Positions 2,856 to 45,336 of a stretch of 64,000 bases of DNA are shown here, one piece after another. The DNA comes from a bacterium (GTDB taxonomy: Bacteria; Patescibacteriota; Minisyncoccia; Phycocordibacterales; Zambryskibacteraceae). The stretch lies in contig JAUSDP010000020.1 of assembly GCA_030650605.1 (NCBI GenBank), positions 13,486 to 77,485 of the forward strand. The letters are read 5' to 3'. The notes under the pieces are model-generated. The model was not told where the DNA came from. It saw only the letters and a list, made by a program, of their open reading frames with translations, and searched no databases. The position numbers and the translations under genes are program-made. Within the stretch, counting starts at the first letter, position 1. Every line of letters begins with the position of its first letter.

Positions 2856-3032
2856 TCAATTATCGTTAAACCATTCGCCAGCGGTAATTGCTGCTGACTC
2901 ACTACCATTAAATTCACGCTCAAACCAATCCGTATGATCTGGAACCACATGTTTTGCATCTAAGACGGGAAAGCCCAATTGAATCAACTCGCGTTCAACC
3001 GCCGCTACCCACGAATCCCAGCTCATACGCAT
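2856..3032 (-). CDS. hypothetical 58-aa protein, first gene downstream of promoter A1
   Basis: Not in the track (<60 aa); ATG preceded by AAGGGAAG RBS; stop-free 58 codons (MRMSWDSWVAAVERELIQLGF...). Confidence 0.35.
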   Translation of the reverse strand: MRMSWDSWVAAVERELIQLGFPVLDAKHVVPDHTDWFEREFNGSESAAITAGEWFNDN

Positions 3033-3070: not shown

Positions 3071-3098
3071 ATTATAGTTCGTAGATTGATACTGTCAA
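3071..3098 (-). promoter_or_regulatory. consensus sigma70 promoter A1 (TTGACA-16 nt-TATAAT) reading leftward
   Basis: Reverse complement of 3071-3098 = TTGACAgtatcaatctacgaacTATAAT; near-identical copy at 4492-4520. Confidence 0.5.
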
Positions 3099-3382
3099 GC
3101 GTTATTTGAATCAATATCCGAACTAATTGCACGAAGTGCCGCCGCTTTATTTAACACGCCCCAGGAAGTAATCGAATACACCGGACCAACTTTCTCAATG
3201 CCGACTAAAAAGAACTTTGAAGCACTCTCCAGTGCACGACTGGCCTCAAGCCGCGTGCAATGTATGTCTTGCGCGATATAGTGCGCTGTGGCCCGTTCCT
3301 TTAGCCTTTCAACGGCAAACAGCGCTACTAGGTAGCGCCGTGGATCGTACTTTTCAAAATCCTTGTAATTGGCGGTCGCCAT
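3095..3382 (-). CDS. hypothetical protein
   Basis: 95-aa ORF. Confidence 0.4.
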   Translation of the reverse strand: MATANYKDFEKYDPRRYLVALFAVERLKERATAHYIAQDIHCTRLEASRALESASKFFLVGIEKVGPVYSITSWGVLNKAAALRAISSDIDSNNA

Positions 3383-3400
3383 ACTAAAACTTTTCCATGA

Positions 3401-3640
3401 TCAAATTTCTGTCACGATAAGGTCATGCAAAGAATTGAATTCAACTTTGAGTTTCTGCTGCCTGGCGAGTTCCAGCCACCTTGCTGCCGTTGCCGATTTG
3501 TCGATCATTGGGTTCTGGTGATATCGGTCTACTGCATTAAGCCACTGTAGAACATTTGTACCAGTGAACAAGCGCACTATATCTGCCAACGACTGTTCAA
3601 GTGAATTGCTAAGCGCAAGCAAGTTATGCATTTCGTTCAT
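3401..3640 (-). CDS. hypothetical protein
   Basis: 79-aa ORF. Confidence 0.4.
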   Translation of the reverse strand: MNEMHNLLALSNSLEQSLADIVRLFTGTNVLQWLNAVDRYHQNPMIDKSATAARWLELARQQKLKVEFNSLHDLIVTEI

Positions 3641-3824
3641 GTTTTTCCTTTAATTGGCTGGGCGCAAACGATAGATGTCATCAAAAAGCGATTCTAGGTC
3701 TGCACGTGTGCCGCGAATTTTATCTATAACTTCCTTAGACCAATCAAAATATTCAATGAATCGACTAAGCTGCCAACCAATAGTTTCCCTTGATATTTAT
3801 TCTTAGTAGAGCAGTCTGACTCAT

Positions 3825-4080
3825 TTATTGAGGGGGATCTCCAAACTCGGATAACAAAGCAGTTTTTCTACCCAATGGAGCATTGCGGTGCTGAGGCTCC
3901 TGTAATTCACTATTACATTTTCTGCAGTAACCTGACGCCTTACCCTTGGTACCTTTATCTGACCAGGTAAAATAGAATTTCTTATACGTTGGATTCGCAT
4001 CAGTAATTACTTCGCCATTACCGCATTCACAGTGCAGCCCGCCAACGTCGCGATAAATTATTAAAGCGTTTTTACTCATA
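3825..4080 (-). CDS. zinc-ribbon-like small protein (start at MSKNAL with GGAG RBS)
   Basis: CxC...CxxC cysteines (HCECGNGE ... CRKCNSE); GGAG 4 nt before the ATG. Confidence 0.4.
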
Positions 4081-4170
4081 AAATCTCCAAACTTTTTTTT
4101 AAGGTTCCAAATTTCTTTAAATGAGTAATCCAAAAGCCAAATTGCCTTTTGATCTCTGGATATGCAAAAT

Positions 4171-4440
4171 TTAATTGACTCTAATTGCAAATACTTTTAC
4201 TGGTTCATTGCCGAAATGTGGGTGAACAATATCTCTCACCTCATATCCTTGCCATTTTCGAACGATAATTCGACTCGTGTCGGAATTACGAGGATAAGCC
4301 CATTTAATGAAAATTCGATCAAATGTCTTACCCTCTATTCGCTTTGCCCATTTTTCGTATAGCCGAAATTCGTCCGGTTTTGTGCCGGCTTTGATCTGTT
4401 GAAAGTACTCTCCTTTTACATGAAGATGAAGATCAGCCAT
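4171..4440 (-). CDS. hypothetical protein, possibly ASCH/PUA-like
   Basis: 89-aa ORF with AGGA RBS; first gene after promoter A2. Confidence 0.4.
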   Translation of the reverse strand: MADLHLHVKGEYFQQIKAGTKPDEFRLYEKWAKRIEGKTFDRIFIKWAYPRNSDTSRIIVRKWQGYEVRDIVHPHFGNEPVKVFAIRVN

Positions 4441-4491
4441 ATTTTTCCTAGTTATTCCAATGACGGGATTCTCGAATACATCTAATTACAG

Positions 4492-4520
4492 ATAATATAG
4501 TTCGTAGGTTGATACTGTCA
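4492..4520 (-). promoter_or_regulatory. sigma70 promoter A2 (TTGACA-17 nt-TATATT), second copy of the A1 module
   Basis: Reverse complement = TTGACAgtatcaacctacgaacTATATT; about 30 bp near-identical to 3071-3098. Confidence 0.5.
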
Positions 4521-4663
4521 ACCGATATTTTTCCAAACGTTCGGATTAATTTGACGCGATGCGGTTGATCCTATTAAGTTATACGTAACTTGATCATTTG
4601 GGACTGCACGTTGTCCTAAATATGCCGTTTTTCACATTGCATAACGTGTCATATCCCGAGTAC

Positions 4664-4691
4664 TTGACTCGGTTAAATTCTTCTGTATATT
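4664..4691 (+). promoter_or_regulatory. candidate sigma70 promoter (TTGACT-16-TATATT), divergent from A2
   Basis: TTGACTcggttaaattcttctgTATATT upstream of the plus-strand ORF. Confidence 0.35.
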
Positions 4692-4723: not shown

Positions 4724-5065
4724 ATGAACGCTCCAGACTATAGTAGTATGTGGACGAACCAATTGGCGGCGACCAATCGTGCCAACAACGATGCTGCAAC
4801 TTGGGAAGAAAATTCCCAAGAATGGAGTAAATATGCGAAGCAGATGGAAGCAAAGTTAAACTGGGTGACAGAGCAAAAAAGTGGTGTTAACGCCGTTCGT
4901 ACAGCATTACTTGAGGAACTAGGCAAAAATTTGCCGCAACATTCTTTGAATAAATTGGAAAATAGAATGTCTATTTTTTTTGATGGTGTAAATCAAGATA
5001 GACAAGAGCGCGGTTTAAGAGCGCTCACTCGTGATGAGTTCAATGAAAAAAAATATTTTGGATAA
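4724..5065 (+). CDS. hypothetical protein (start at MNAPDY after AGGA RBS)
   Basis: ORF 4598-5065 with internal RBS-supported ATG; followed by a strong terminator. Confidence 0.45.
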   Translation: MNAPDYSSMWTNQLAATNRANNDAATWEENSQEWSKYAKQMEAKLNWVTEQKSGVNAVRTALLEELGKNLPQHSLNKLENRMSIFFDGVNQDRQERGLRALTRDEFNEKKYFG

Positions 5066-5084
5066 TTGAAAAAATTAGAATCTA

Positions 5085-5118
5085 AAAATCCACTCAAAAT
5101 CGAGTGGATTTTTATTTT
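5085..5118. terminator. bidirectional rho-independent terminator
   Basis: 8-bp stem ATCCACTC/GAGTGGAT, 6-nt loop, T-run on both strands; sits between convergent genes. Confidence 0.6.
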
Positions 5119-5121
5119 GGA

Positions 5122-7305
5122 TTATCCGCTTACTGGCTTTCCGATTCCGCCAGTTGGCGGGCTTTCTCCGCTAGGTTTGGTCGCACTTTTTGATACCCTA
5201 CCTGGCTGCATACCTCCACGAATCTGAACGACACCCGCAGTAAAATGGCTTTTGGCTCGATCGTCCGTATCTTTTCCTATTGTCCCACTTACATGTCCGC
5301 CGACCCATGAAATTACCTGGTCCGGGATGATATGAATCAGGTTGAAGCAACCGTGAATAAGGGTTAAAACCAGAGATACGAAAACAAAGACAAAACCAAC
5401 GAACATGACAAATCCTGTCGTGCTGTTGAACTGTGCGTTTGCCATCGCTGGCGCAAACAACACCAAGAGAACTGATCCCAATACTTTCACGGCATACGAT
5501 GCGCCGAAAAATCCAAACACCATCAAAGATGGGCGCAGTAATACTCCAAACAAAAACAGATAGGCATGTTGCGATCTCTGGCCCATACCATCACCTTCTG
5601 CTTCCAAATGTGCAAATGCACCTACTGGCGCGGCGATAAGACCCTCAAGGACATTGGCGAACCATGCCATGATGCCACCGAACCAAATAATAAACGGCAG
5701 CATCGGAATGTAGACGGCCAGTGTAATTCCGAATGCAAATAGTCCGACAATAGCCATGACTGCAAAGGGTGAAAATGCATCAAGAGCACCCTTTGCTATG
5801 CCTCTAAGTGCACCGGCTCCGACAAAGTCGGCTGCCATGCCAATTACAGAGCTTTTGGCGCCTTCTGCGGCACCAACCGTAATATGCGCTGCCGTGTACC
5901 CGCCTACGGCGGCGCTGCCCATCCAAATTAGTCCGTCACCCAAATCCTTGAACTCAATAATTGGGTTGACGACGCCGTTCCCAGTAATCGTCCATCTGGC
6001 CACCATATTAGTAATGGTTTGACCAGGGCTATGAAAAAGCTTGGAAATAATTCCGTCTTCACCGGCAACAGCCGCATCTTTATTAAAGTGCTGAACATTC
6101 GCCAGGTTTTTCAATGCGGCTTTGTACGTATCACTATAGGCAAATTTGTCGGGATCCTGCGGCGCGGTGATCCCTGTTTTTCCTCCCGCTACCGCCGTAA
6201 TTGTATCGCCAATGACTGCCAGCGATTGATAAAATGATCCCAATGCCATCCAGCCCTTATTTGTAATCTCTGCTGTAATCCGGCTCATTGCTGCGTTGGA
6301 CAGCGACGAAGCTTTTGTTGATAACGCGTTCGTCACGATTTGCTCATAAATCGTGGCCGCAGCATCAAATTTCGCCTGAAAATCGATGGATCCGTTGCCG
6401 CTGATGGTCGAGTTAAGATAATCTTGGGCGAGTTGTTGCATGGAAGCGTTCATGGACGCTAATGCCGCCTTATGAGCGGCCTTCGCATCCACCACAATCG
6501 ACGACACATCGATGATATTGGAATTTGAACTCATCTCTGTCAAAGTGATCCTGACGCTTCCGCACGCGCCATCGCCTCCCGATGTTACAGGTGCCTGGCG
6601 GGAATAGCTGTAGTCCAACATATCGGCAGAATTGAATAAGGAAACATTTGTCTCCGGGCCGCCAATGTTCCCATTGATGTCTACGGAATTACTGCTTGCC
6701 ATTGAATTATCGTTTGCCACAGCCAGCATGCATAGATTTGAATTAAACATTGCCTTTGCTGTTTCTTGTGCATTCTGATGAATGACCGCTGATGCAGTGT
6801 TGAATCCGCCAAGTGATGACAGCGCTGCGGCCACTACCAAATTTGCCATGCCAATTCCCATTTTGGCAAAATACATCATGATTACTTGGGCGCCACAGTA
6901 ACCGCCAAACATCGGGACCAGAGTTGAAATACCTACGATGAACCGAATGGGAAACCAGATTGTTGAGAATCGCTGTCCCATGAATTCGCCTCCCTCTGCC
7001 GTTTGGACGGTTGCTGCCGTCACGTTATAGGCAAACCAGAAGATGCCAACAGCCAATAAGGCGGCATTGAAAGTACCGAACATGGTGCCGAGTGTTGTCC
7101 CAGATCCGGACCCTGGCAGTCCAGGTGTTTGGTAGAACGTTTCTCCAAAGGCTTCAGCGAGTACGCGTCCGGCGAGATCGGTTCCATTGCTAGCTGCATT
7201 GAGCATGCCGGACGCCGTTACACTTTGCGCTACCGCTAAGCCGCAACTTGCCATTAGCAGCAGAAATGGGATGAGATTTTTTCTTTGGAAAATGTGATGG
7301 CGCAT
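5122..7305 (-). CDS. TrbL/VirB6-like type IV secretion inner-membrane protein (extended form)
   Basis: Signal peptide, about 400-aa hydrophilic domain, then at least 6 TM helices and a Gly/Pro-rich C-terminal tail (PTGGIGKPVSG), typical of TrbL/VirB6. Confidence 0.5.
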   Translation of the reverse strand: MRHHIFQRKNLIPFLLLMASCGLAVAQSVTASGMLNAASNGTDLAGRVLAEAFGETFYQTPGLPGSGSGTTLGTMFGTFNAALLAVGIFWFAYNVTAATVQTAEGGEFMGQRFSTIWFPIRFIVGISTLVPMFGGYCGAQVIMMYFAKMGIGMANLVVAAALSSLGGFNTASAVIHQNAQETAKAMFNSNLCMLAVANDNSMASSNSVDINGNIGGPETNVSLFNSADMLDYSYSRQAPVTSGGDGACGSVRITLTEMSSNSNIIDVSSIVVDAKAAHKAALASMNASMQQLAQDYLNSTISGNGSIDFQAKFDAAATIYEQIVTNALSTKASSLSNAAMSRITAEITNKGWMALGSFYQSLAVIGDTITAVAGGKTGITAPQDPDKFAYSDTYKAALKNLANVQHFNKDAAVAGEDGIISKLFHSPGQTITNMVARWTITGNGVVNPIIEFKDLGDGLIWMGSAAVGGYTAAHITVGAAEGAKSSVIGMAADFVGAGALRGIAKGALDAFSPFAVMAIVGLFAFGITLAVYIPMLPFIIWFGGIMAWFANVLEGLIAAPVGAFAHLEAEGDGMGQRSQHAYLFLFGVLLRPSLMVFGFFGASYAVKVLGSVLLVLFAPAMANAQFNSTTGFVMFVGFVFVFVSLVLTLIHGCFNLIHIIPDQVISWVGGHVSGTIGKDTDDRAKSHFTAGVVQIRGGMQPGRVSKSATKPSGESPPTGGIGKPVSG

Positions 7306-18471: not shown

Positions 18472-18500
18472 ATAATAGTAACGGTGCGTTACTATGTCAA
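18472..18500 (-). promoter_or_regulatory. sigma70 promoter B1 with a palindromic spacer (TTGACA-TAGTAACGcaCCGTTAC-TATTAT)
   Basis: Reverse complement reads TTGACAtagtaacgcaccgttacTATTAT; spacer is the inverted repeat TAGTAACG/CGTTACTA; second copy at 20525-20553. Confidence 0.5.
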
Positions 18501-20524: not shown

Positions 20525-20553
20525 AGTATAGTAACGTAGCGTTACTATGTCAA
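20525..20553 (-). promoter_or_regulatory. sigma70 promoter B2 (TTGACA-TAGTAACGctaCGTTAC-TATACT)
   Basis: Same module as B1; lies between the XRE regulator gene and the AAA ATPase gene. Confidence 0.5.
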
Positions 20554-29687: not shown

Positions 29688-29723
29688 ATAATTATATATC
29701 TACGAACAGTTTAATGTAAAAAA

Positions 29724-33055: not shown

Positions 33056-33709
33056 TTACGACTGAATATTTTTACATTTTGGATATGCGTTACAACCCAA
33101 AAAGGTTTTATTGTTCTTGCTACTTAAGCGGGTTTCCATCTTTCCTTCGCCGCATTTGGAACAGGTTTCGCCATGACCTGGCAATGAATCAAACTGAGGG
33201 CGTTCTTTTTTAGCGTACCCTCCTTTTTCGCGCTTACTTTGAATGTGAGTACCATCAATTTCAAGCATGAGGGCGCGATCCACTACTTGCTGAACATATT
33301 TTTCAATTCCACTCATAAACGCTACAGGAGTCGTTTTTCCTTCTGCCACATTTTGCAATCCAAATTCCAATAAGGCGGTTCGCCCTGGATCCCCTAGGCC
33401 CTCATCAATAAAAGAATCCAACTCGATTGCCAATGGTGAGGCATCCAAATATTTTCCATCGCGAAGAACCAAACCATCCGCAACGACTTTTTCAATCACG
33501 TCAGGTCTGGTTCTTTCCGTACCCAAACCTTTTGTCTTCATTAAAATTGATCGCATCCGATCATCAGTGACGAATTTATGGACGCCAACCATGTCATCCA
33601 ATAGCGTCGCATCGGTATATCTTGAAGGCGGAGCGGTCTTTCTTGCATCTACCCGACCACCACGAACCGATACCTGTTGGCCGGCCTGAAATGGAAGTTG
33701 AGTGGCCAC
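33056..33709 (-). CDS. C-terminal fragment of a type IA DNA topoisomerase (Topo III-like) with a Zn-ribbon; GTG start right after a TAG
   Basis: KTAPPSRYTDATLL ... TKGLGTERTRPDVIEKV matches the PPxRYTEAxL ... GIGTPATRAxII region; C-terminal CSKCG ... CNAYPKC zinc ribbon. Confidence 0.6.
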   Translation of the reverse strand: MATQLPFQAGQQVSVRGGRVDARKTAPPSRYTDATLLDDMVGVHKFVTDDRMRSILMKTKGLGTERTRPDVIEKVVADGLVLRDGKYLDASPLAIELDSFIDEGLGDPGRTALLEFGLQNVAEGKTTPVAFMSGIEKYVQQVVDRALMLEIDGTHIQSKREKGGYAKKERPQFDSLPGHGETCSKCGEGKMETRLSSKNNKTFLGCNAYPKCKNIQS

Positions 33710-33892: not shown

Positions 33893-34198
33893 TTAATGTG
33901 GATGGCTGTTTCTGGTTAGCTCGTCTCGTTGAACAAGTGCATTTTCAAATACTAAAACTTCGTTTTTCAATTTCTGAACAAAATGTTCTAGCCGGTTATC
34001 CTCGCTGAGCAAAAACAAAGAGAACCGTTCCAAACCTTTACGATCGGTTCTAATACCAATGTCTTCTTGATCTAATAGCTCCGATGCCTTCGATAAGAGA
34101 ATGCACTCATCTTCATCTGGCAAACGTTGCCGGAAATAGTTTTCCGCCGCCTGCTCAGAATGATAACGTTCCAAATCTTCGTATTGAATTTCATTCAT
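33893..34198 (-). CDS. hypothetical protein
   Basis: 101-aa ORF, 4-nt overlap with ardC. Confidence 0.4.
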   Translation of the reverse strand: MNEIQYEDLERYHSEQAAENYFRQRLPDEDECILLSKASELLDQEDIGIRTDRKGLERFSLFLLSEDNRLEHFVQKLKNEVLVFENALVQRDELTRNSHPH

Positions 34199-35172
34199 TT
34201 TGGGCTTATGGAAAACGTTTCTTCCTCATCCATTAGAGAAGAAATGCTGTCAAAATCAAAAGTAAAGTCGCTGAGATCAATTTCATTCATAGGAACGTAA
34301 TCGGGGTTATTTGTGAACTGCATCAAATAATCACTCGATTTTTCTGCCTCGGCCGCAGCTCTGAAGAAAACGTTTTTATCATTGTCGATCGCTTCCATCC
34401 AATCGCCGATATAACTTACGTGCTTATCGAGCTTATAAGAAACGCCAAAATCTGAGCATAAATAGACCGAAGTCAATTCTGCGACAAGTTCTTCTGCTGC
34501 ATAAGTTTTCATGTCACGATCCATGCGACCAGACGCCTTCGTCCAGTGAGCCATTTCATGTAGTAGGGTCGCGTAATATCCTTCCGTGTCATGAAATGAT
34601 TCTTTGGCTGGCATAGAAATCAAATCTTGACTCGGTATGTAACATGGGACATCTCTCATTCCAAACTCAAGGACGGCGCCAGATGCAGCGACCATCGCTT
34701 CAATTGCGTCATTTGAATGAATCTTAAGATCTGGAACGATAACCTCGGGCATGGAGGTCATTTGTTGAGCATTAAATACAGTGGCGTAAAAAGGACAAGG
34801 GCGATCGAGCTTCTTGTTTACGTAAACTGGCTTACCGGTTGCGGGATCGGTCTCATCAGTTTTGACACTTTTAGTGAACGACCAATATTCAATTGTTGTC
34901 CCCTTCTCTCCCTTTTTAACACTCACTTCAAGTTTTTTGGCTTGGTTGAAAGTCATCCAGCGAGAGTCGGTATAACCTCGCGCTAGAGCGACCATACCGA
35001 GCACAACTCGATTCCCTCCACGATAGCGCTTTCCGGTCGTCGGATTGAGTGGAGACATAACTGAAACAGCGCGTGCAGATGAAACGCTCCAATCCGGTTC
35101 CCAAGGCTTAAAGCCTAGGCTCAATTGATTAACAATTTCCTTGGAAAGGTTTTCGCGCAACTCTTTTGACAT
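34195..35172 (-). CDS. ardC: ArdC-family antirestriction / ssDNA-binding protein with a C-terminal zincin-like metallopeptidase
   Basis: N-terminal DUF1738-like region and C-terminal LLHEMAHWTKASGRMDRD (HExxH) as in ArdC; AGAGGA RBS. Confidence 0.8.
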   Translation of the reverse strand: MSKELRENLSKEIVNQLSLGFKPWEPDWSVSSARAVSVMSPLNPTTGKRYRGGNRVVLGMVALARGYTDSRWMTFNQAKKLEVSVKKGEKGTTIEYWSFTKSVKTDETDPATGKPVYVNKKLDRPCPFYATVFNAQQMTSMPEVIVPDLKIHSNDAIEAMVAASGAVLEFGMRDVPCYIPSQDLISMPAKESFHDTEGYYATLLHEMAHWTKASGRMDRDMKTYAAEELVAELTSVYLCSDFGVSYKLDKHVSYIGDWMEAIDNDKNVFFRAAAEAEKSSDYLMQFTNNPDYVPMNEIDLSDFTFDFDSISSLMDEEETFSISPK

Positions 35173-35383
35173 CACATCCTCTGTTTATTAATTTCGTATA
35201 TGTAATATTACACGGAAATTATAATAAAAGGAATTATGAAACGATACAAAATTAATTGGCGTACTAGCTACTCTACGAAATTCTATGGTGATTTTTTGTT
35301 TGGTTGCCGCTTCTCAAAAATTAATGCCTCACGGCCAATATAGCGAGATCGAGTTCCTACCTGCCGGCACCTTTAACTTCTTT

Positions 35384-35717
35384 TTCTCACCCCTGCACGC
35401 AGGGTATAACCATCCGAGCAACGTGTTGGTGGCACACGATCACTTCTCAACCCTGCACGCAGGGGGGATAACATGGCTGTCGGTGCTGGCGTCGTCATGT
35501 TTAATTTCTCACCCCTGCACGCAGGGGGGTAACAAACCGGTGTGGCACAACTCTTTACGTCTTCCATTCTCACCTCCGCACGCAGGGGGATAACAAGGTT
35601 AGTACAGTCGGTTGGTTTTCTGCCCTATTCTCACCCCTGCATGCAGGGGGATAACAGCATTGCAAATTGCCGGAGGATCGCCGGACCCGTTCTCACCCCT
35701 GCACGCAGGGGGATAAC
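35384..35717 (-). CRISPR. CRISPR array: 6 repeats of 27-29 nt (consensus GTTCTCACCCCTGCACGCAGGGGGATAAC on the plus strand) with 5 spacers of 32-33 nt; I-E-like hairpin repeat. Strand is uncertain: minus is inferred from the cas operon orientation and the degenerate distal repeat
   Basis: Repeats at 35384-35410 (degenerate, AGGGTATAAC), 35444-35472, 35505-35533, 35566-35594 (two substitutions), 35627-35655 (one substitution) and 35689-35717; spacers are unique. Confidence 0.85.
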
Positions 35718-35738
35718 TCTCATTATAACCTGATGATT

Positions 35739-36068
35739 TTAATCAATAATTTTGATGTCTTCACTTGTGCCAAGTTTTACATTACTATTTACGGTTAAAT
35801 ATTTTATTAGTTGTAGTCCGTGATTATCACAAACCTGTCTCGCATTTTGACCATGACTTGCAACAATAAAACCTGTTTCTGTTTTGGCAGCAAAAATGCA
35901 AATTGCCGAACATTCCGTATTTTTGATTTCATCCCAAATTTGCTTTGTTTTTCGTGAAGATAATTTCCAAACAAAAGTGCCTGGCCGAATCTCCAACATT
36001 ATCCGTTGCAGGTAACCAGTTAAACTTTTAGGGGCCTTTTTTATGTCCAAAACAACTAAACTAGTCAT
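35739..36068 (-). CDS. cas2: Cas2, I-E-like
   Basis: 109 aa; MTSLVVLD ... ETGF pattern aligns to I-E Cas2; 4-nt overlap with cas1. Confidence 0.85.
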   Translation of the reverse strand: MTSLVVLDIKKAPKSLTGYLQRIMLEIRPGTFVWKLSSRKTKQIWDEIKNTECSAICIFAAKTETGFIVASHGQNARQVCDNHGLQLIKYLTVNSNVKLGTSEDIKIID

Positions 36069-36889
36069 TTATCAGACCTCATTAAATGTTCGATAATATT
36101 AATAATTTTTGAAGCAGTGTTATCTCGCCTAAAGACATCTCTACACAACACTCGAATTCCAGATTCATTTACATTTATATTAGTTGAATATAATTCGATC
36201 GCAGCAGGAACAATTGTCTTAAATTTAATCGTGTCAGCAATATCAAATACAAATGATCGTGGATCGCCAGAATGAATGAACCCAATCGCCGGTGAATATC
36301 CAAGTGCAAGAATCGCAGCTTCGACCAATCCATAAAGCGCAGCGTTTGCTGTACTTATTGCGCGATTTAACGGATCTGACAACGAAGAACGTTGATCTCT
36401 TCCTAGCCATTTAACATTGTATCTTGCAGAAATTTCACGATACAAATCATAAACTTTTGCACCTTCGATCCCACGCAGTTGATCAATACTTCTTCCAGCT
36501 GGAGGTTCAACATCAAACATCTCCCGATAAATATTTCTCGCCATCTCCAAACGTCGCGATGGATCTAAATGAATGGAAGCTTGATGTAACAATTTTTGCG
36601 CTACAGCCCCACCTGGATTGCCAGCCGAATAACATCTAACTCCTGCCTCACCAATCCAAAGTATTAAACATCCCGATTCGGCACATGCCTTGACTGCGGC
36701 ATGTGTAACAACAGTCCCAGGTTCAATACAGATAACGCTTGTTGCACCGACAGGAAAATGTATTTTGCTATCGCCTTGTCGTAAAACGACCGCGTGCCCA
36801 TCAAGTTCAAGCACACCATATTCTGCATAAATAAAAGTTACCCGATCCACGATAGGGATCGGGTAATCTATCAACGAACGTCCACTCAA
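36065..36889 (-). CDS. cas1: Cas1 integrase, I-E-like
   Basis: 274 aa; long collinear similarity to E. coli Cas1 (GEAGVRCYSAG ... LRGIEGAKVY ... GFIHSGDPRSFVFDIAD). Confidence 0.9.
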   Translation of the reverse strand: MSGRSLIDYPIPIVDRVTFIYAEYGVLELDGHAVVLRQGDSKIHFPVGATSVICIEPGTVVTHAAVKACAESGCLILWIGEAGVRCYSAGNPGGAVAQKLLHQASIHLDPSRRLEMARNIYREMFDVEPPAGRSIDQLRGIEGAKVYDLYREISARYNVKWLGRDQRSSLSDPLNRAISTANAALYGLVEAAILALGYSPAIGFIHSGDPRSFVFDIADTIKFKTIVPAAIELYSTNINVNESGIRVLCRDVFRRDNTASKIINIIEHLMRSDK

Positions 36890-37602
36890 GCGATTAATTC
36901 CTTGGACATTACCCGATCAGTTTTTCTCCAATACGGCGGCCGGATACACGCCTGAACAGTGGCATAGGAAAATCCTGCTTTACCTGGCTCATCCAAAGGC
37001 AATACACGTAAGCGCCAATCATCTTCACGGTCATGTGATGACACATCAATGCTTGCTACACGACCGTAACCATTGCGTCCGACTTTGCCAATGTATTTAA
37101 TATGCTGAGTGAGATAATACTCAATGGCGTCAATGTCTCCAACGCCATACGCCGTAATATCACGGACCCAACGGCTTGCAGTCAACCATTGATAACCACG
37201 TTGTTGACCGCTAGCGGTTTTAATCCCAAACGTTTCAGGATCAATACCTCGCACGTTCCCATTTTTCAGAAAGCCTGAAACCCACACACCATCGGGCGTA
37301 TCTTCTGTATACAAATCCTTGAAGTACATCTCCGGATCAGATTTACGAATTTGATTCGACAGCATGATGTCACTCGATGCGGCCACAATCAATTTTGACG
37401 TTTTCCACACCCAGTCCTTGCCATCGGTGCGTGCAAGAAAATCTGACATATGCTGATCGGTCTTGGCCCAGCAATCATCCTCGCCAGCACGCTCCATTTC
37501 CTGCACGCTTGCATAGGCCAGAAGAGCATCCAGATGAATCGGATATTCCGAATCCATAAAAAGCGGCGAAGCAAGAGTGATCTTAACTTTAAAAGGCTGC
37601 AT
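36886..37602 (-). CDS. csf3: Cas5-group RAMP, Csf3-like
   Basis: N-terminal ASPLFMD ... HLD RAMP motif and C-terminal Gly-rich loop GKVGRNGYGRV; position matches csf3 in type IV-A; 4-nt overlap with cas1. Confidence 0.55.
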   Translation of the reverse strand: MQPFKVKITLASPLFMDSEYPIHLDALLAYASVQEMERAGEDDCWAKTDQHMSDFLARTDGKDWVWKTSKLIVAASSDIMLSNQIRKSDPEMYFKDLYTEDTPDGVWVSGFLKNGNVRGIDPETFGIKTASGQQRGYQWLTASRWVRDITAYGVGDIDAIEYYLTQHIKYIGKVGRNGYGRVASIDVSSHDREDDWRLRVLPLDEPGKAGFSYATVQACIRPPYWRKTDRVMSKELIA

Positions 37603-37631
37603 AAAAATGCTCCTGATTGAGGTGTTGATTT

Positions 37632-38846
37632 CTATCGAGCTAATTTTTTAGCAGCAGCTTTGGCTTCTTTTTCAAGTGCCTTTGCCGCCTTTTCTTCAGC
37701 TGCTTTCAGCGCTTTTTCTTCGGCTTTGCGCTCCTTATCAACCGCTTTGGCCGCTTTTTCTTCGTCAGTGGCAATCACTGGTGGCTTCATGATGGCGTCC
37801 AGACGCTCTCCACTCAATTCAGACGCAGCAATTTTCCACGCATTCAAATAGACAGCAATTGATGGATCAGCTTTGATCAACGAGTTATTGTTAAAAATCG
37901 TATCGGTCACATCAACATTGTCACCAGTATTAATCGCGATCGCCACATCATTGAGGCGAATACGGCCAAGTCCATTACGAGTTTGTCCACCGATGGACGT
38001 TTTTGCCAGTCCATCAAGACTTAACAAAAATAGACCAATTTGTGCATCGGTAACATCGGTCAATTCAACAGTAAAATCAAAATCAACGCCTGGATCTACA
38101 AATTCAAATGCACTCCACGCTTTAGTGCTGTTGCGACTTCCTTTTTCTTCTGCGTCCTTCGCTAGCTGATCCTCAATGATCAACCGCTGACGTGCATTAA
38201 ATTGAACTTCAAAGTCCGTTACAACACCTTCCATCCGATCTACATCAAGAAGTGCACTAACGTCATCGCCGCGTCGAAATGCCGCCCCGCGCGAAATATT
38301 CATGCCCGATGTTGCTTTCCCTACTCCCCGTGGGTGACCTACAGAAAAGCCAGATGATCGCAGACTATCCATGACGGGCACTGCATCAAGAACACGCATA
38401 CGACGACGCAACATACGCGGACCACCACCAAAAAGTCCAACATAAGGATGTGACGATACCTCCTTATATTCAGCAAACGTCAGATCGCGAGAATCGGGCT
38501 TTCCTGTCACAGCGCCGCAAGTAATTGCAGAGTACGTTTGCAAAGTGATCTTTTGATTCTTCTCACGAAGAACATTGACAAGAATTTGAGCACCCTGACG
38601 ACGCAAACGACCTGCAATATTATTCGCGGCAATGACAGCGACACCATAATCGAGTCCATCGACAGATCCAGGGGCAAAACGACGACGCTGAATACCGGCA
38701 CAGGCGATGCCTCCTTTGGTTCCGTTTTTAACAAGGCCATAGCCGGTTGAATCGCTTACTTCGTAGCGGAAGGTTTCTGGTGATGCGATGTGCAATGGAG
38801 ACAAAGTAGTCAAGATTGCGTGGATGGTGACTGATTTTTTGGACAT
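37632..38846 (-). CDS. csf2: Cas7-group RAMP, Csf2-like backbone protein, with an unusual Lys/Ala/Glu-rich C-terminal tail
   Basis: N-terminal TTLSPLHIASPE (Cas7 signature); about 350-aa RAMP body; C-terminal EEKAAKAVDKERKAEEKALKAAEEKAAKALEKEAKAAAKKLAR. Confidence 0.55.
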   Translation of the reverse strand: MSKKSVTIHAILTTLSPLHIASPETFRYEVSDSTGYGLVKNGTKGGIACAGIQRRRFAPGSVDGLDYGVAVIAANNIAGRLRRQGAQILVNVLREKNQKITLQTYSAITCGAVTGKPDSRDLTFAEYKEVSSHPYVGLFGGGPRMLRRRMRVLDAVPVMDSLRSSGFSVGHPRGVGKATSGMNISRGAAFRRGDDVSALLDVDRMEGVVTDFEVQFNARQRLIIEDQLAKDAEEKGSRNSTKAWSAFEFVDPGVDFDFTVELTDVTDAQIGLFLLSLDGLAKTSIGGQTRNGLGRIRLNDVAIAINTGDNVDVTDTIFNNNSLIKADPSIAVYLNAWKIAASELSGERLDAIMKPPVIATDEEKAAKAVDKERKAEEKALKAAEEKAAKALEKEAKAAAKKLAR

Positions 38847-38902
38847 GATATTAAGCTTTCTAGTTGAGTTAAATGAACAGCTAATAAATTACAAATACGG
38901 GA

Positions 38903-39670
38903 TTAATCACTGGTTTCTGCAGGTGTGAAATCATCGATACCGGCACCTGGGGTCAATAAGAATCGTAGTCCCCATGTTTCGCCTAGCGTCAAATTTCTCA
39001 AAAATTCAATTTCATTCTTAAATTGTTTCAATAGATCAGCATGTATTTCCGCTTTCGCTGGATCTGAAGGCATGTTGAGACGAAGCGTTCCATGTCCGAT
39101 TTCTTTCAAATCGGCAGACAAACGAAGAAATGGATGGACCAATGTTTTCGCCGTTGCTTCAAATCCAAACGCTTTACCAACCTGCTGACTGACCTCGACG
39201 GCCTGCATCAAAATGGCATGTCTGATTTTTACATCCCGCAGTCCAACCCGTACATAAAACAATTCGGGAGAGAAATTCACGGGCGCTCGCCATGCCATAT
39301 GTTGATTATTTGCCGTGGCATACACCGCCACAAAGGGTTCTTGCGGTGGATTAGTCAATGCGGAAGAAATTTCGAGCCACTTGCGAAATGGAATATAGGC
39401 AGACTTGGTAAATACGCCATATCCTGTTTCTTTCAATGCAGTTGCACTCATCAAAGTGGCGCAATATCCACACATCAAATCACTACCACGTGCAGCGAGA
39501 GACAAGTCATCCATGAAAGCTGCAGATACTGAGAACGGGCTAGACAGATCACCAACGGCAATATGCAATCCGCAAAAAGCACAGCAACCTTCTTTTTTGG
39601 AAGCAACCCCTTCAGGCGATTCACCTCGGGACTGCGTCACAATCACAGAGGAAGTTATAGTTAAGCTCAT
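38903..39670 (-). CDS. csf1: Csf1-like zinc-finger small subunit (Cas8-like)
   Basis: CCAFCG ... CGYC zinc finger; ATG overlaps the cas6 stop (ATGA) with GGAGGA RBS; position matches csf1. Confidence 0.5.
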   Translation of the reverse strand: MSLTITSSVIVTQSRGESPEGVASKKEGCCAFCGLHIAVGDLSSPFSVSAAFMDDLSLAARGSDLMCGYCATLMSATALKETGYGVFTKSAYIPFRKWLEISSALTNPPQEPFVAVYATANNQHMAWRAPVNFSPELFYVRVGLRDVKIRHAILMQAVEVSQQVGKAFGFEATAKTLVHPFLRLSADLKEIGHGTLRLNMPSDPAKAEIHADLLKQFKNEIEFLRNLTLGETWGLRFLLTPGAGIDDFTPAETSD

Positions 39671-40416
39671 CGTTCTATCCTCCGACGAATCAATCCATAT
39701 CCACGCGAACGCAGTTTTCCTGCCATCCAAGGACCATTTAGTGAAATGTTGGTACAAAAGGTAATATTCTTAAAAGCCGCTGCAGGAATCCCGGGCTTAA
39801 TCGGAATTGGTACTGACTCTCCTTCTAAAATATCCAAAATAAGACTGTCGTCAGATGGGATACCATGCTCTAGAAGATGTGGCGTACCAAGGTCTTCATC
39901 GAGCCACCGAGCCATAGAGATCAGACCGTTTAAAATTTCTTTTTTAATTTCAGGCGCTCGCTCTTGAGCCGTCACACCAAAAAAGTGAGAAAGCTTCGCC
40001 GGTTTTTTTGACACGATCAATTTACGGATGGAGTAAAGGATCGGTTCGCTCATTTGAAGCTCACAATCACCGTGTTTAAATTCCATACGGTATGGCCCAC
40101 CGAGATGTTTGGACAGTGCTGTCACGATCGACGCAGTATGTTCTGCCAATAAGTCCGTGCCAGATTTGCCAATACCATAGATGCGAATAAATCCGTTTCC
40201 ACCATCAAAAATAATGCTTGGAGGTAGACCGAAACCTTCTCCCTTGCGATCATCTCCATAACGACCCTGGAGTGTTTTACCATCTGGGCCGCGAGCGAAA
40301 ATAGCAGGATCAATTGATCGACCATCACAAGCCTTGGCCACTAACGATCGGGCATCTTCAGGATAGATCTGCTGCCCTTTTAGTACTTCAGGAAATAACA
40401 AAAGTTCTTTATACAT
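39667..40416 (-). CDS. cas6: Cas6 endoribonuclease (Cas6e/Csf5-like)
   Basis: C-terminal Gly-rich loop AGKLRSRGYGLI resembles Cas6e GxxKSMGCGLL; first gene of the operon. Confidence 0.6.
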   Translation of the reverse strand: MYKELLLFPEVLKGQQIYPEDARSLVAKACDGRSIDPAIFARGPDGKTLQGRYGDDRKGEGFGLPPSIIFDGGNGFIRIYGIGKSGTDLLAEHTASIVTALSKHLGGPYRMEFKHGDCELQMSEPILYSIRKLIVSKKPAKLSHFFGVTAQERAPEIKKEILNGLISMARWLDEDLGTPHLLEHGIPSDDSLILDILEGESVPIPIKPGIPAAAFKNITFCTNISLNGPWMAGKLRSRGYGLIRRRIER

Positions 40417-40574
40417 GTTGTGTGTCCAATTATTTGTTTAGTTGGTGTAACGAATATTACTCTACAAAAAAAATATAGCAAGTAGGAATTTAATTTTAAT
40501 AAGTAAATACACTTGATGAAATTTTCTTTATTTGGGCTATAATTTGCCCATATTAACCAATGCCGAGGATTCTC
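40417..40574. promoter_or_regulatory. divergent promoter region between the cas operon (minus) and dinG (plus)
   Basis: AT-rich 158 bp; TATAAT at about 40538 on the plus strand; TTGCTA-16-TAATAT on the minus strand. Confidence 0.35.
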
Positions 40575-42872
40575 ATGAACGCAGCCGCACAGCGAAATGT
40601 ACAAGTGCCTTTGGTAGATCCCGTCAAAAACCACGTCGGGGCCTCGATCTCAGATGCTTATCGCAGTCTTATTCGTTTTGCCATTAATGCAAAACTACCT
40701 CCGAAAGCAGTAGAACTTGAAGGTATTCCTCGTGTAAGCGTGTTTTTCCCGCCTGCGTTATTCGCTCAAATCTCAGAAATCGCTGAACTTCATCAACTGT
40801 CATATCAATCTACAGTAGCTGGGCTGGCGATAGCCGGTGCAGAAAAAATAGCCGAAAAAAATGAATTGGTAGAACAATTCAAAAGTGATGTTCCATTTAG
40901 GGCGCGTCCGGAACAAGTTCTTTTCTACCAATCAATTATGGCCGGGCTGTCATCATCTAAAATCGTCGTTGCAGAAGCCTCTACTGGCGCAGGCAAGGGA
41001 CGTGCATTGATGGCTGCCGCTATCGCATCAGCTCAAAACGGAAAACTCCCTGTCATCGTCGCAGCACCAACAATCGTCGTCGTTAATCAACTATGGGCTG
41101 AACTGCAGGTACTTCGCACGCAAGACAATATGGGACCGCTTATTTCAGCAACGATCCTACCTGGCTCTGCAGATCTGGCAGATGACGTCAAACTTTTGGA
41201 GTGGGCAAACGATCCTGATTTTAATCAACTCGATCCTGCGGTGACAGAATGGATCCTTAAGGGTGGACCTCACAAAGCTAACGATGCGATGGCGCAAGTA
41301 GCCAAAGAACAAGGAATTACCCTTTGCTGGATGATGTCCGACTTGCAAGAGATTGCAACTAACTTCCCTTCTGATGACTATGTTTTAACGACGAATAGCG
41401 AAGACAAGACAACGCTCTCGCAATCGCGAGAATTGTTAGCCAAAATTCGTGAAGCCGCCAATCGGAAAGACGTCGATAAAAATATGAACACGGTTCACGC
41501 CGGTGCGGACATTATCCTTTGCACCCACGCCATGTTAGCGCTTGGACAAATGACAAAATGGGTTGTGCTCCCGCAACCAAAAGTGCTGATCGTCGACGAA
41601 GCCCATCTTCTAGAAGAAACAATTTCAAGAATGAATAGTCAGCAAATTTCACTATTTTCGATTAGTTATCGCCTAAGCCGTTTTTGCCGCGCAACAGGGG
41701 CAGGAAAAGGAACCGTAGCCAGGGACACTCAAGCAAAGGCCAAACAGTTCCTGCGTACTTGTATGGAAATGTCAAACAATGATATTCGTCAAAAACTCAA
41801 TGACGATCCGTCTAAATATGACACTGTTCAAAAGGGATTGGCCAGTCTCGCCAATATGGTTAAAAACAAGGTTTTTAAGTCGGATCCAACCATTCAAAAA
41901 GATATGTATTCTCTTTTGTCTGGCACAGCCAATATGATGGAGAAGGATCGGTCCAAAAACAGTACGCATCTTCAATTCTCTCCTGATAGGCGGTACCCAT
42001 TGATCAGTGTCGGAGCCGATACGATCGGAATGCAGGCTGGAGCCATTTGGAAGACCGTAGACGGTGGTGCCGTACTTGCGTCGGCTACCATGTACATCAC
42101 CGATGAATATGGCAACCAGAAGTGCGATTACGTGGTTCGAAATCTTTCAATCCCGCTCTCCAGGCTGGACACCCCTCTTCCTGTCGTGAGCAGCTATATT
42201 TACACCCTTCCAACACTATACTTACCAAAAAAAGAAAACTATGCGGCACTGTCTCGCCCAGCATTGAAAGAGAGGGAGGACCCTCAAGTGGAGAAAGAAT
42301 GGTTGAAAAATATTGCTGATGTTGTCGCCAAAAATGCTAAAACATGCAAAGGCGGAACGCTGGTACTCACAAATTCCTATGACCAGATTGACGAGATCTC
42401 CACGCAACTGAAAGAAAAATACCCTGAGATCGCGGCCAGAGTCATTGTCCAGGTACGCAAGGCAAAATTTTCAGCCGCAGTGAACGCATTCACTCTGGCG
42501 CATAGCAATGGCGTAAAGCCGATTTTGATTGGGCTTGGCCCGGCCTGGACAGGGCTCAATTTGTCGCAAGATGTATCCGATCCTAAAAAAGATACTCTGC
42601 TGATGGACCTTGTCATCGCCTGTAGCCCGATCGGACTGAACCAAACTGCGACAATGCTTCGCCGTATTGAGCAAACCAATACAAGTGCGATAGCGAAAGA
42701 AGGACTACTTATTTTAAAACAAGGGCTTGGGCGGTTGATTCGTCGCGATGGTGTTGAAGGACGTCGAATTTGGATCTTGGATGGCAGAATCTGGTCAGAT
42801 AATTGGCTGAAGCAATTTACGGGGCCGGCTAAACGTTTGTTGGGTAAATATAAAAATGTGGATTATTTTTAG
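40575..42872 (+). CDS. csf4: DinG-family (Rad3/XPD-like) SF2 helicase, CasDinG/Csf4-like
   Basis: Walker A AEASTGAGKGRA; DEAH box VDEAHLLEE; about 766 aa; GAGGA RBS; divergent from the cas operon. Confidence 0.8.
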   Translation: MNAAAQRNVQVPLVDPVKNHVGASISDAYRSLIRFAINAKLPPKAVELEGIPRVSVFFPPALFAQISEIAELHQLSYQSTVAGLAIAGAEKIAEKNELVEQFKSDVPFRARPEQVLFYQSIMAGLSSSKIVVAEASTGAGKGRALMAAAIASAQNGKLPVIVAAPTIVVVNQLWAELQVLRTQDNMGPLISATILPGSADLADDVKLLEWANDPDFNQLDPAVTEWILKGGPHKANDAMAQVAKEQGITLCWMMSDLQEIATNFPSDDYVLTTNSEDKTTLSQSRELLAKIREAANRKDVDKNMNTVHAGADIILCTHAMLALGQMTKWVVLPQPKVLIVDEAHLLEETISRMNSQQISLFSISYRLSRFCRATGAGKGTVARDTQAKAKQFLRTCMEMSNNDIRQKLNDDPSKYDTVQKGLASLANMVKNKVFKSDPTIQKDMYSLLSGTANMMEKDRSKNSTHLQFSPDRRYPLISVGADTIGMQAGAIWKTVDGGAVLASATMYITDEYGNQKCDYVVRNLSIPLSRLDTPLPVVSSYIYTLPTLYLPKKENYAALSRPALKEREDPQVEKEWLKNIADVVAKNAKTCKGGTLVLTNSYDQIDEISTQLKEKYPEIAARVIVQVRKAKFSAAVNAFTLAHSNGVKPILIGLGPAWTGLNLSQDVSDPKKDTLLMDLVIACSPIGLNQTATMLRRIEQTNTSAIAKEGLLILKQGLGRLIRRDGVEGRRIWILDGRIWSDNWLKQFTGPAKRLLGKYKNVDYF

Positions 42873-43130: not shown

Positions 43131-43463
43131 ATGAATCAGAAAGCTTCCATGAAAAACTCCTTCATACCCTCATTCCAGTGTGAATCTGCCCTTGAAGACA
43201 TGGGTAGTAAGTTGCGCATTGCGCGACTTCGCCGTAACGAGTCGGTGCAAATCGCCGCGCAACGTCTTGGCATCTCTCGCGCCAAGTATCAACGGCTTGA
43301 AAATGGCGACTCGAACGTATCCGCTGGCGCATTGATTGAAGCGCTCATCCTGTACGGCTTTGAATCGCAGGTATTTGCCCTGGCGGACCCAGATTTAGAT
43401 GAAACTGGAAAAAGGTTAGAAAAACAATTGCTCCCAAAACGAGGACGTACTCATGCAAAGTAA
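43131..43463 (+). CDS. hipB: HipB-like XRE HTH antitoxin (start uncertain)
   Basis: LRIARLRRNESVQIAAQRLGISRAKYQRLENG is an XRE HTH; overlaps the downstream hipA by 11 nt. Confidence 0.7.
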   Translation: MNQKASMKNSFIPSFQCESALEDMGSKLRIARLRRNESVQIAAQRLGISRAKYQRLENGDSNVSAGALIEALILYGFESQVFALADPDLDETGKRLEKQLLPKRGRTHAK

Positions 43464-45030: not shown

Positions 45031-45336
45031 ATGGCTGGCAAATTCCCTAAAATTACCAATCCTCCATCACCTCAAATTTCCTCAGCGCAGGAATTAGGGC
45101 TATGGATACGCGCACGCCGCATTGCGGCCGGCATTCGTATTGATGATGCCGCCGCACTTTCTAACGTGTCGGTGCAATTGTTGTCGGATTTGGAAAATGG
45201 CAATCGCTCGGTCGGTATCGATAAAGTGTTTGCGGTAATCAATTGCTTAGGGCTGGACCTGATGGTAAAGCCACGCGGTGAAGATCTCGACGACAGAGAT
45301 GCAGAAACTGAGGCTGACAATGCTCCCAAAAACTAA
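45031..45336 (+). CDS. hipB: HipB-like XRE HTH antitoxin (second copy)
   Basis: LWIRARRIAAGIRIDDAAALSNVSVQLLSDLENG. Confidence 0.7.
   Translation: MAGKFPKITNPPSPQISSAQELGLWIRARRIAAGIRIDDAAALSNVSVQLLSDLENGNRSVGIDKVFAVINCLGLDLMVKPRGEDLDDRDAETEADNAPKN

Follow-up and report, generated by a model that had tools for sequence, protein, structure and literature searches.

On arrival in a new host, a conjugative plasmid has to express its establishment and anti-defence genes immediately, and to keep the cost low it must silence them afterwards. The known answer, strong promoters held in check by tight negative feedback, has been worked out for few model plasmids, R388 and RK2 among them. In the kil-kor system of RK2 (IncP-1), operators for KorA, KorB and KorC reside in the kle, klc and kor promoters: repeated palindromic operators overlie the -10 element or the spacer of near-consensus promoters, which drive small-gene operons under the control of small plasmid repressors. 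ArdK of R388 represses PardC, Porf7, Porf12, Porf14 and its own promoter, Pssb; these five strong promoters carry repeats beside TTGACA, and expression overshoots after conjugation (PMC3937220, PMC9723621). The subject of the present analysis is a pair of near-identical sigma70 promoter modules, termed copy 1 and copy 2, and a small gene, p95, in a stretch of 64,000 nucleotides (contig JAUSDP010000020.1, positions 13,486 to 77,485). We refer to this stretch in its entirety as “the window,” and positions are those of the window unless a related locus (designated by L and a number) is named. The p95 gene (3095..3382, minus strand; single copy in the window) encodes a protein of 95 amino acids, predicted to have a winged helix-turn-helix (wHTH) fold, which we regard as a candidate repressor. 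In function, the locus appears to resemble the ArdK regulon (R388/pKM101) and the KorA/KorC regulons of RK2.

How far does this resemblance extend? As with ArdK of R388 and pKM101, a small plasmid helix-turn-helix (HTH) repressor would act on more than one strong promoter, the genes driven being small ones for establishment or maintenance; the repeat lies beside or overlaps a TTGACA -35 element; and the regulator’s own operon is among the targets, which in the present case is a prediction. ArdK accepts both direct and inverted repeats, a property relevant to the second box described below, which is inverted at copy 1 and degenerate at copy 2. The differences are several: p95, a predicted winged helix, has no sequence match to KorA/ArdK, only two promoters are proposed as targets, the box sits in the spacer and abuts the -10 element rather than lying beside the -35 element, and the promoter is embedded in the 3′ end of the regulator gene. 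With respect to RK2, the repressor families and operators are different, and the clear 12-13-bp palindromes found there contrast with a weak GTA-N6-TAC dyad and a distant partner here. Repressors of the phage Cro/CI type share with p95 a small (winged) HTH protein and operators that overlap promoter elements, but p95 lies outside any phage context, its locus has neither a tripartite operator nor a divergent repressor pair, and the similarity is below the family threshold. Frpo/ssi promoters of plasmid leading regions (e.g., in F; PMC11541004, PMC9849209) also provide early expression of small genes and recall the inverted repeat around copy 1; they differ in that their hairpin is long and imperfect and holds the -35 and -10 elements in double-stranded form, whereas the -35 element of copy 1 would fall in the loop and both modules have the form of canonical double-strand promoters. 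The control design proposed here would be ordinary for plasmids and changes no concept; the regulator family is undescribed. With its defined box of 17 bp and a new family of candidate repressors, the locus would make a compact example, and it represents an MPF_I (DotA/TraY-type) lineage of plasmids that is uncultivated.

Two near-consensus promoter modules

Copy 1 (TTGACAGTATCAATCTACGAACTATAAT, equivalently cgcTTGACAgtatcaatctacgaacTATAATcaatt) occupies 3098-3071 and copy 2 (TTGACAGTATCAACCTACGAACTATATT, equivalently cggTTGACAgtatcaacctacgaacTATATTatctg) occupies 4521-4494, both on the minus strand; they were identified by direct reading and a pattern search. Copy 1 is composed of TTGACA, the 16-nt spacer GTATCAATCTACGAAC and TATAAT, thus matching the consensus at 12 of 12 hexamer positions. 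The corresponding parts of copy 2 are TTGACA, GTATCAACCTACGAAC (again 16 nt) and TATATT, for 11 matches of 12; an alternative -10 element, TATTAT, lies at 18-nt spacing. The copies are identical at 26 of 28 nucleotides. When up to three mismatches were allowed, only these two sites matched in the 64-kb window, and none of 100 dinucleotide-preserving shuffles yielded two such matches. A previous sequence-only reading of this DNA had reported near-identical modules of about 30 bp, spacer included, and these results bear it out, except that its second interval (4492-4520) was off by 1-2 nt from the true one (4494-4521). Further copies, for which it had proposed a search, were found neither in the window, which covers 64 kb of a 165-kb contig, nor in two larger sets: 596 Gb of genomes representing species and the JGI metagenomes were scanned for exact matches to TTGACAGTATCAANCTACGAAC and yielded none, the source metagenome-assembled genome being absent from both.

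The modules also stand out as promoters. They are the two best sigma70-consensus matches between 1 and 20 kb. Across the window, matches of at least 11/12 were found at five sites, compared to 1.55 expected; these comprise six hexamer combinations because copy 2 also fits the 18-nt spacing. All five are on the minus strand, which is the strand of nearly all genes. From the end of the -10 element, it is 38 nt to the ATG at 3032 in copy 1 and 53 nt to the ATG at 4440 in copy 2. Both first genes are supported by ribosome-binding sites (RBSs), as had been claimed, with AAGGGAAG preceding the former ATG and TAGGAA the latter. The predicted transcription start sites fall at ~3064 and ~4487, respectively. 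An A-rich tract 5′ of the -35 element is common to most of the modules aligned below and, taken together with the consensus hexamers, predicts very high activity in the unrepressed state. The TGA stop codon of p95 lies inside the -35 element of copy 1, and this copy is therefore an internal promoter of a co-directional gene array, not an intergenic one. The description of the modules as consensus sigma70 promoters fronting minus-strand small-gene operons agrees with the sequence wherever the two could be compared. From these features, we consider it highly likely that both modules are real sigma70 promoters.

At copy 2 only, the -35 element lies within a palindrome with 6-bp arms, GGTTGA-N5-TCAACC (4507-4523, plus strand), which is followed by a T-run on the plus strand; in a terminator scan, it registered as terminator-like in the antisense direction. 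Its counterpart in copy 1 is limited to TTGA-N5-TCAA. This shorter symmetry over the -35 element and ATCT-N5/6-AGAT after the -10 element were considered as operators and rejected; both occur in the copies in the window and are not conserved in relatives.

Extent and age of the duplication

Do the modules share ancestry, or only a function? At a fixed register offset of 1423 bp, the core is identical at 26/28 positions (93%) and the 35 bp upstream of the -35 element at 21/35 (60%). Further upstream and past the -10 element, identity drops to background (11/35 and 9/35). Random 35-mers from the window reach 21/35 at a frequency of ~5e-5 in fixed register. We regard the modules as a duplication because the homology takes in 35 bp that, in copy 1, are the 3′ coding end of p95. 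The matching flank of copy 2 (4522..4556, minus strand) has this similarity to the last p95 codons, a relic which marks copy 2 as derived from the end of the p95 cassette. As judged from this alignment, the duplicated piece is ~63 bp long and consists of the last 35 bp of the p95 coding sequence and the promoter. At the protein level, no longer p95 remnant, paralogue or pseudogene was found upstream of copy 2.

The core has been kept better than the flank (Fisher p=0.003), and the same is true of the spacer alone (15/16 vs. 21/35, p=0.02). With 93% identity in the core and 60% in the flank, the duplication is therefore old, neither fresh nor neutral, and the core has been selectively kept. The sequence-only reading had offered a shared regulator site or a recent duplication; a duplication is supported by the 35-bp flank and a site by the retention of the spacer in five other loci, but the duplication is not recent.

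The module is conserved beside p95 homologues

Seven loci with close p95 homologues (55-79% amino-acid identity) were recovered; most p95 homologues reside on short contigs. In six of the seven, a promoter of the same build is found directly after the gene or in its end. Besides copy 1, these are TTGACT GTATCAGTTCACGGAC TATAAT in L022 (a plasmid with a 91%-identical TraY), TTGATA GTTACAATCTACGAACT TATAAT in L013, TTGCAT AGTAACAAGCAACGGAC TATAAT in L015, TTCAAT GTATCAAAATACGGAC TAAAAT in L016 and TTAACT GTAGCGTTTAACGGAC TATAAT in L018. The exception is L014, where the gene downstream is convergent and the module is missing. Among the seven aligned modules, ACG.ACT abutting the -10 element and GT..C after the -35 element are invariant, and the shared pattern can be written as -35 / GTAnCA..ACGRAC / TAtAAT. 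Across the recovered loci, ACGRAC together with TAtAAT occurs only at the 3′ ends of p95 genes and in copy 2 of the window. The genes 3′ of the module are unrelated between loci (58-aa, DnaB, 81-aa, 155-aa, 136-aa and 79-aa proteins). In a blastn comparison of the window with L022, positions 3367-3071 are aligned at 73%, and the alignment ends at 3071, the last base of the -10 element. In this pair, the spacer is as conserved as the adjoining p95 coding DNA, while the leader cannot be aligned; this is the pattern of a functional element that does not code for protein, is under constraint and moves together with p95. The sequence-only reading had missed this tie of the module to the upstream p95, whose predicted fold makes it an obvious candidate regulator.

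A residue of p95 also varies with the sequence of the module. The conserved wing motif VY is followed by Ser or Ala in the two loci with ACGAAC in the box (the window and L013), and by Lys, Lys, Gln and Lys in the four with ACGGAC (L015, L016, L018 and L022). The case of L022 was forecast from its protein, P0070, before the DNA was looked up. Because the loci are few and related, we treat this correlation as a lead, not as proof.

More distant homologues form a sister clade, ~35% identical to p95, on plasmids of P. aeruginosa, P. koreensis and Ralstonia. Their box is a different palindrome, GGTGC-N7-GCACC, and it occurs at two places: just 3′ of a -10-like hexamer ahead of the gene (L021, L024 and L025), and in the spacer of a TTGAC(A/T)-N17-TAATAT promoter inside the 3′ end of the gene (L021 and L023; decayed in L024). 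In L021, the boxes are located at 3956 and 4241. The sister clade thus appears to repeat the two-site layout, ahead of the regulator and at its end, with another box specificity, protein and box having changed in step.

In two loci, p95 homologues adjoin a plasmid dnaB (5422-6840 in L013 and 2604-4004 in L019). The promoter at the end of p95 in L013 faces dnaB; in L019 (Janthinobacterium pJAB4160), an unannotated p95 homologue lies directly 3′ of dnaB.

Predicted structure and relatives of p95

An AlphaFold2 model of p95, calculated with a 20-sequence alignment, has a predicted local distance difference test score (pLDDT) of 90.9 and a predicted template-modelling score (pTM) of 0.82. Its topology (H15-30, H33-40, H44-58, E61-65, E68-73, H79-86) is that of three helices followed by a β-hairpin wing and a C-terminal helix. 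When the model was compared to the PDB with Foldseek, the top matches were all wHTH DNA binders (E 0.02-0.1, template-modelling (TM) scores of 0.45-0.55), including a Z-alpha domain, the IclR-type PcaR, SmtB/CzrA/CadC, MepR/SlyA and AspA. Four p95 homologues have weak matches to Pfam Cro (best E 2.4e-4, under the family threshold), and single homologues weakly match other Pfam HTH families. Distant plasmid homologues are labeled “helix-turn-helix domain-containing” or “MarR family” by the Prokaryotic Genome Annotation Pipeline. For p95 itself, Pfam and NCBIfam gave no match to the KorA/TrfB/ArdK family even at E<=1, and a sequence search of the PDB yielded no match. Homologues number 25 in a set of 5.8 billion proteins and form ~50 clusters among 1.84 billion representatives; no relatives were found in viral contigs or phage records. 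On the strength of the model, p95 is plausibly a sequence-specific DNA-binding protein of an undescribed family.

The Logan assembly of SRR13727527 is broken inside p95 (~3149-3337): one contig stops 45 nt into the gene and another begins at codon 79. A 95%-identical variant of p95, P0049, is present on several short Logan contigs, which suggests that variants of p95 co-exist in the sample.

Putative operator boxes

The proposed operator box of copy 1, O_R (GTATCAATCTACGAACT, 3076..3092, minus strand), fills the spacer and abuts the -10 element. This 17-nt box is identical at 16 of 17 positions between the two copies, and its internal dyad symmetry, GTA-N6-TAC, is weak. An inverted partner, O_L (GAATCAATATCCGAACT, 3108..3124, plus strand), matches O_R at 14 of 17 positions; it is located beyond the -35 element in the last codons of p95, 32 bp from O_R (centre to centre). 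A search for the best additional match to each locus’s own 17-nt box located an inverted partner at 32-33 bp in four loci: copy 1 of the window (14/17), L013 (15/17), L022 (13/17) and L015 (12/17). In the flank of copy 2, the equivalent of O_L is degenerate. We propose that O_L may serve as an auxiliary operator three helical turns from O_R. On the whole, the conserved spacer is probably a regulator site.

A possible third, partial site, TTTACA-N18-TATAAT (11/12; 29691..29720, minus strand), occurs in a 36-bp gap between two genes of the tra region. Within its spacer, GTTCGTAGAT reproduces the core of the box in the opposite orientation (13/17), a match of uncertain significance; its TATAAT ends 3 nt before the called ATG. 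The site is not conserved in the distant relative L011.

Proposed mechanism

We lean somewhat towards an explanation in which the modules are strong sigma70 promoters with an operator for p95 in the spacer, the result being negative feedback on two small-gene operons. The ancestral unit would have been the p95 gene with a promoter in its 3′ end that could drive any gene downstream. A piece of this cassette of ~63 bp would have been duplicated to the head of an operon encoding an ASCH-domain protein, an 84-aa protein, a 79-aa protein and p95, and copy 2 would now transcribe p95. The protein would bind to the box GTATCAAYCTACGAACT in both promoters and, at copy 1, also to the inverted partner 32 bp upstream, such that the -35 element would be sandwiched. 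We would expect repression rather than activation: bound p95 would block RNA polymerase, and its own operon would be repressed in a negative feedback loop. It would also repress the downstream small-gene operon, and approximately a dozen small genes could be coordinated in this way. Upon entry of the plasmid into a p95-free cell, both promoters would operate at full strength and would then be shut down. Such a circuit would illustrate one route of growth, namely the copying of a 63-bp promoter-operator piece. Should p95 bind as proposed, the protein and its promoter could be put to use as a small orthogonal pair, and annotation of the accessory regions of related environmental plasmids would be aided by the box.

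Several observations weigh against this explanation. Relatives lack a second copy upstream of the p95 operon, and only this window has one; autoregulation by the copy-2 route would accordingly be special to this plasmid. Descent of all the loci from one cassette could account for the linkage of gene and promoter in place of a regulator-operator relation, and a single event could underlie the residue-base correlation, given that the recovered loci are few and lack independence. The Foldseek E-values are weak and the TM scores stand at ~0.5; p95 lacks a curated family match, and no family reaches its threshold. Copy 2, L016 and L018 have a degenerate inverted partner or none; the partner overlaps the Ser-Ser/Pro-stop codons, which partly explains its conservation, and covariation of O_L and O_R among six sequences does not exceed that in shuffles. 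Finally, because oriT (the origin of transfer) was not located, we do not claim that the locus is part of a leading region.

Four other explanations must be considered. The modules could be functional strong promoters whose spacer is the target of a factor other than p95, either another plasmid repressor or a host protein, with p95 no more than the gene that adjoins the promoter in the cassette. Conservation of the spacer shows constraint without naming the binder, and the window and its relatives encode many uncharacterized small proteins, p95 itself being without a family. However, the module is always found with p95 and never with any other gene, it is missing from loci anchored by ASCH and from the same position in the backbone relatives, the sister clade repeats the pattern of a gene and flanking boxes with a box of its own, and no LexA-like motif was seen by eye in the modules; we therefore consider another factor unlikely. 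Slightly less likely in our view is a duplicated constitutive promoter devoid of an operator, in which the spacers would be alike by ancestry and selection would act on promoter strength through the hexamers, the spacer length and a UP-like A-tract. The 63-bp duplication is demonstrable, the A-rich tract precedes the -35 element in most modules, and a perfect consensus needs no activator. Yet spacer sequence normally drifts freely, and here the 16-nt spacer keeps 15 of 16 positions next to a flank that keeps 21 of 35; its 3′ half is invariant among loci whose proteins are 55-79% identical, while 5 nt past the -10 element the sequences are unalignable. Nor would an inverted second box at fixed spacing have a role in a plain promoter.

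It is also conceivable, though improbable, that the inverted repeat around the -35 element functions as an RNA stem-loop at the end of the p95 transcript (a 3′ stabilizer, a processing site or a weak terminator insulating the cassettes) or as a single-stranded DNA (ssDNA) structure during conjugative entry, with the likeness to a promoter being secondary. Stems are predicted in copy 1 (DNA z -3.5, RNA z -3.0), L013 (z -5.2) and L015 (z -2.7), one pair has changed on both sides (T-A to C-G in L015), and a T/G combination in two sequences would be tolerable in RNA. But copy 2 (z -0.69), L016 and L018 have no stem even though box and hexamers are all retained there; the stems themselves are AT-rich, lack a U-tract and are followed by UAUAAUCAAUU; the terminator scan found no minus-strand terminator-like site at either copy; and the -35 element falls in the loop, unlike in Frpo-type ssDNA promoters, in which both boxes are paired. 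Further, Rfam has no match in the window, and covariation is not above that in shuffles. An Frpo-like ssDNA promoter was thus rejected on account of the -35 element in the loop of copy 1 and the z score of copy 2, and an intrinsic terminator for want of a GC-rich stem with a U-tract. The least probable alternative, to which we give very little credence, is that the 28-mers are recombination or module-junction sites for gene cassettes and only look like promoters. The breakpoints of homology do coincide with the end of the -10 element, copy 2 is ~100-130 bp from the junction of backbone and cargo at 4652, and the downstream genes differ at every locus. Against this, no recombinase lies beside the sites in the window, there are only two copies in 64 kb, and by eye the sites are unlike an attC core (the GTT.../...AAC order is reversed) or XerC/D dif-type 11-6-11 sites; these two likenesses and that to a LexA box were rejected by such comparison. 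Recombination sites would not be expected to carry a 12/12 sigma70 consensus correctly placed and oriented for RBS-supported genes, nor to occur as seven modules of this kind.

Returning to p95 as the regulator, there is a broader form of the proposal that we put forward only tentatively and regard as doubtful, as it draws on seven loci: p95 with its 3′ promoter-operator may be a portable cassette that is set before arbitrary cargo (DnaB, small anti-defence-like genes and others) by recombination just after the -10 element and whose promoter part can be copied alone, such that more operons, that of the regulator among them, are brought into the circuit. If true, it would be a plug-and-play expression module for the accessory regions of plasmids, run by an uncharacterized winged-helix family.

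Genes and genomic setting

The first gene after copy 2 (4171..4440, minus strand) encodes an 89-aa ASCH-domain protein, as named in the source annotation of its homologues. These homologues occur on unrelated plasmids and prophages without this promoter, and the module is thus not tied to ASCH. Next in the copy-2 operon, also on the minus strand, are genes for an 84-aa Cys-rich protein (3825-4079) and a 79-aa protein (3401-3640), neither of which has a family match. With p95, the fourth gene downstream of copy 2, they are presumably co-transcribed. The first gene after copy 1 (2856..3032, minus strand) encodes a 58-aa protein, and beyond it, as far as ~1173, lie at least six more small genes in the same direction. 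The terminator scan found no minus-strand terminator-like site between 4494 and 3095; transcription from copy 2 therefore probably runs on into the copy-1 operon, and copy 1 would add a second start. Between the 84-aa and 79-aa genes is a gap of 184 nt (3641-3824) that is free of open reading frames and has no match in Rfam.

Back-to-back with copy 2, as the sequence-only reading had noted, there is a plus-strand promoter, TTGACT-16-TATATT (4664..4691). It belongs to a conserved 113-aa gene (4724-5065) of the plasmid backbone, is kept in L008 and L009, and is not part of the duplicated module. These two relatives, whose TraY proteins are 94% and 91% identical, share DNA with the window from 4652 upward, including the 113-aa gene and its promoter; below 4652, they carry other cargo and, at the position of copy 2, other promoters. 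Because the shared backbone ends at 4652, both copies fall within a variable accessory region, which is made up of small genes in one orientation. The 727-aa protein encoded at 5122-7305 is a DotA/TraY homologue according to the annotation of its plasmid matches, and the window also encodes TraW-like, ArdC-like, LPD1, topoisomerase III and Sno-type helicase/methylase genes. Given TraY and this tra-type gene content, the window is part of an MPF_I-type conjugative plasmid or an integrative and conjugative element. What looks like a bidirectional terminator (5083-5114), an AT-rich perfect palindrome of 13-14 bp flanked by T-runs, lies in the interval separating traY from the convergent 113-aa gene.

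Other elements of the plasmid family

Two more families of duplicated promoters were encountered. One is near-consensus, TTGACA-TAGTAACG-N3-CGTTAC-TAT..., and occurs at 18472-18500 and 20525-20553 (both on the minus strand); position 14757 of L009 equals position 854 of L022. The spacer forms a palindrome with conserved half-sites and a 3-nt centre that differs (CAC, CTA, CGG) among the copies and a related plasmid; this looks like the classical operator signature of another repressor. The other family, TTGAC(A/G)-(T/C)(T/C)GTTTATATAAACGG-TAT(T/G)AT, is found in L022 at 4326 and 5845, around a KfrB-like gene. With at least two more duplicated consensus promoters that have palindromic spacers, control by an operator within the promoter would seem to be habitual in this plasmid family.

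Among the remaining genes of the window are an ArdC-like gene (34195-35175), a topoisomerase III gene that is apparently split (50100-51620 and 33056-33709) and a gene for a 1773-aa protein combining a methylase with a Sno-type helicase (55253-60574). A complete type IV-A CRISPR-Cas locus spans 35381-42872. It comprises csf4/dinG on the plus strand (40560-42872) and csf5 (39667-40416), csf1 (38903-39757), csf2 (37632-38846) and csf3 (36886-37602) on the minus strand. Directly after the csf genes are the type I-E genes cas1e (36065-36889, above the NCBIfam cut-off) and cas2e (35739-36068), and after cas2e is a CRISPR array of six repeats with a 61-nt period (35381-35717). Type IV-A systems are usually without adaptation genes of their own, which makes a plasmid-borne, fused I-E adaptation module notable. 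Beside the CRISPR locus, two genes for HipA-like kinases (43453-44775 and 45278-46696) are located on the plus strand, ~0.5 kb apart.

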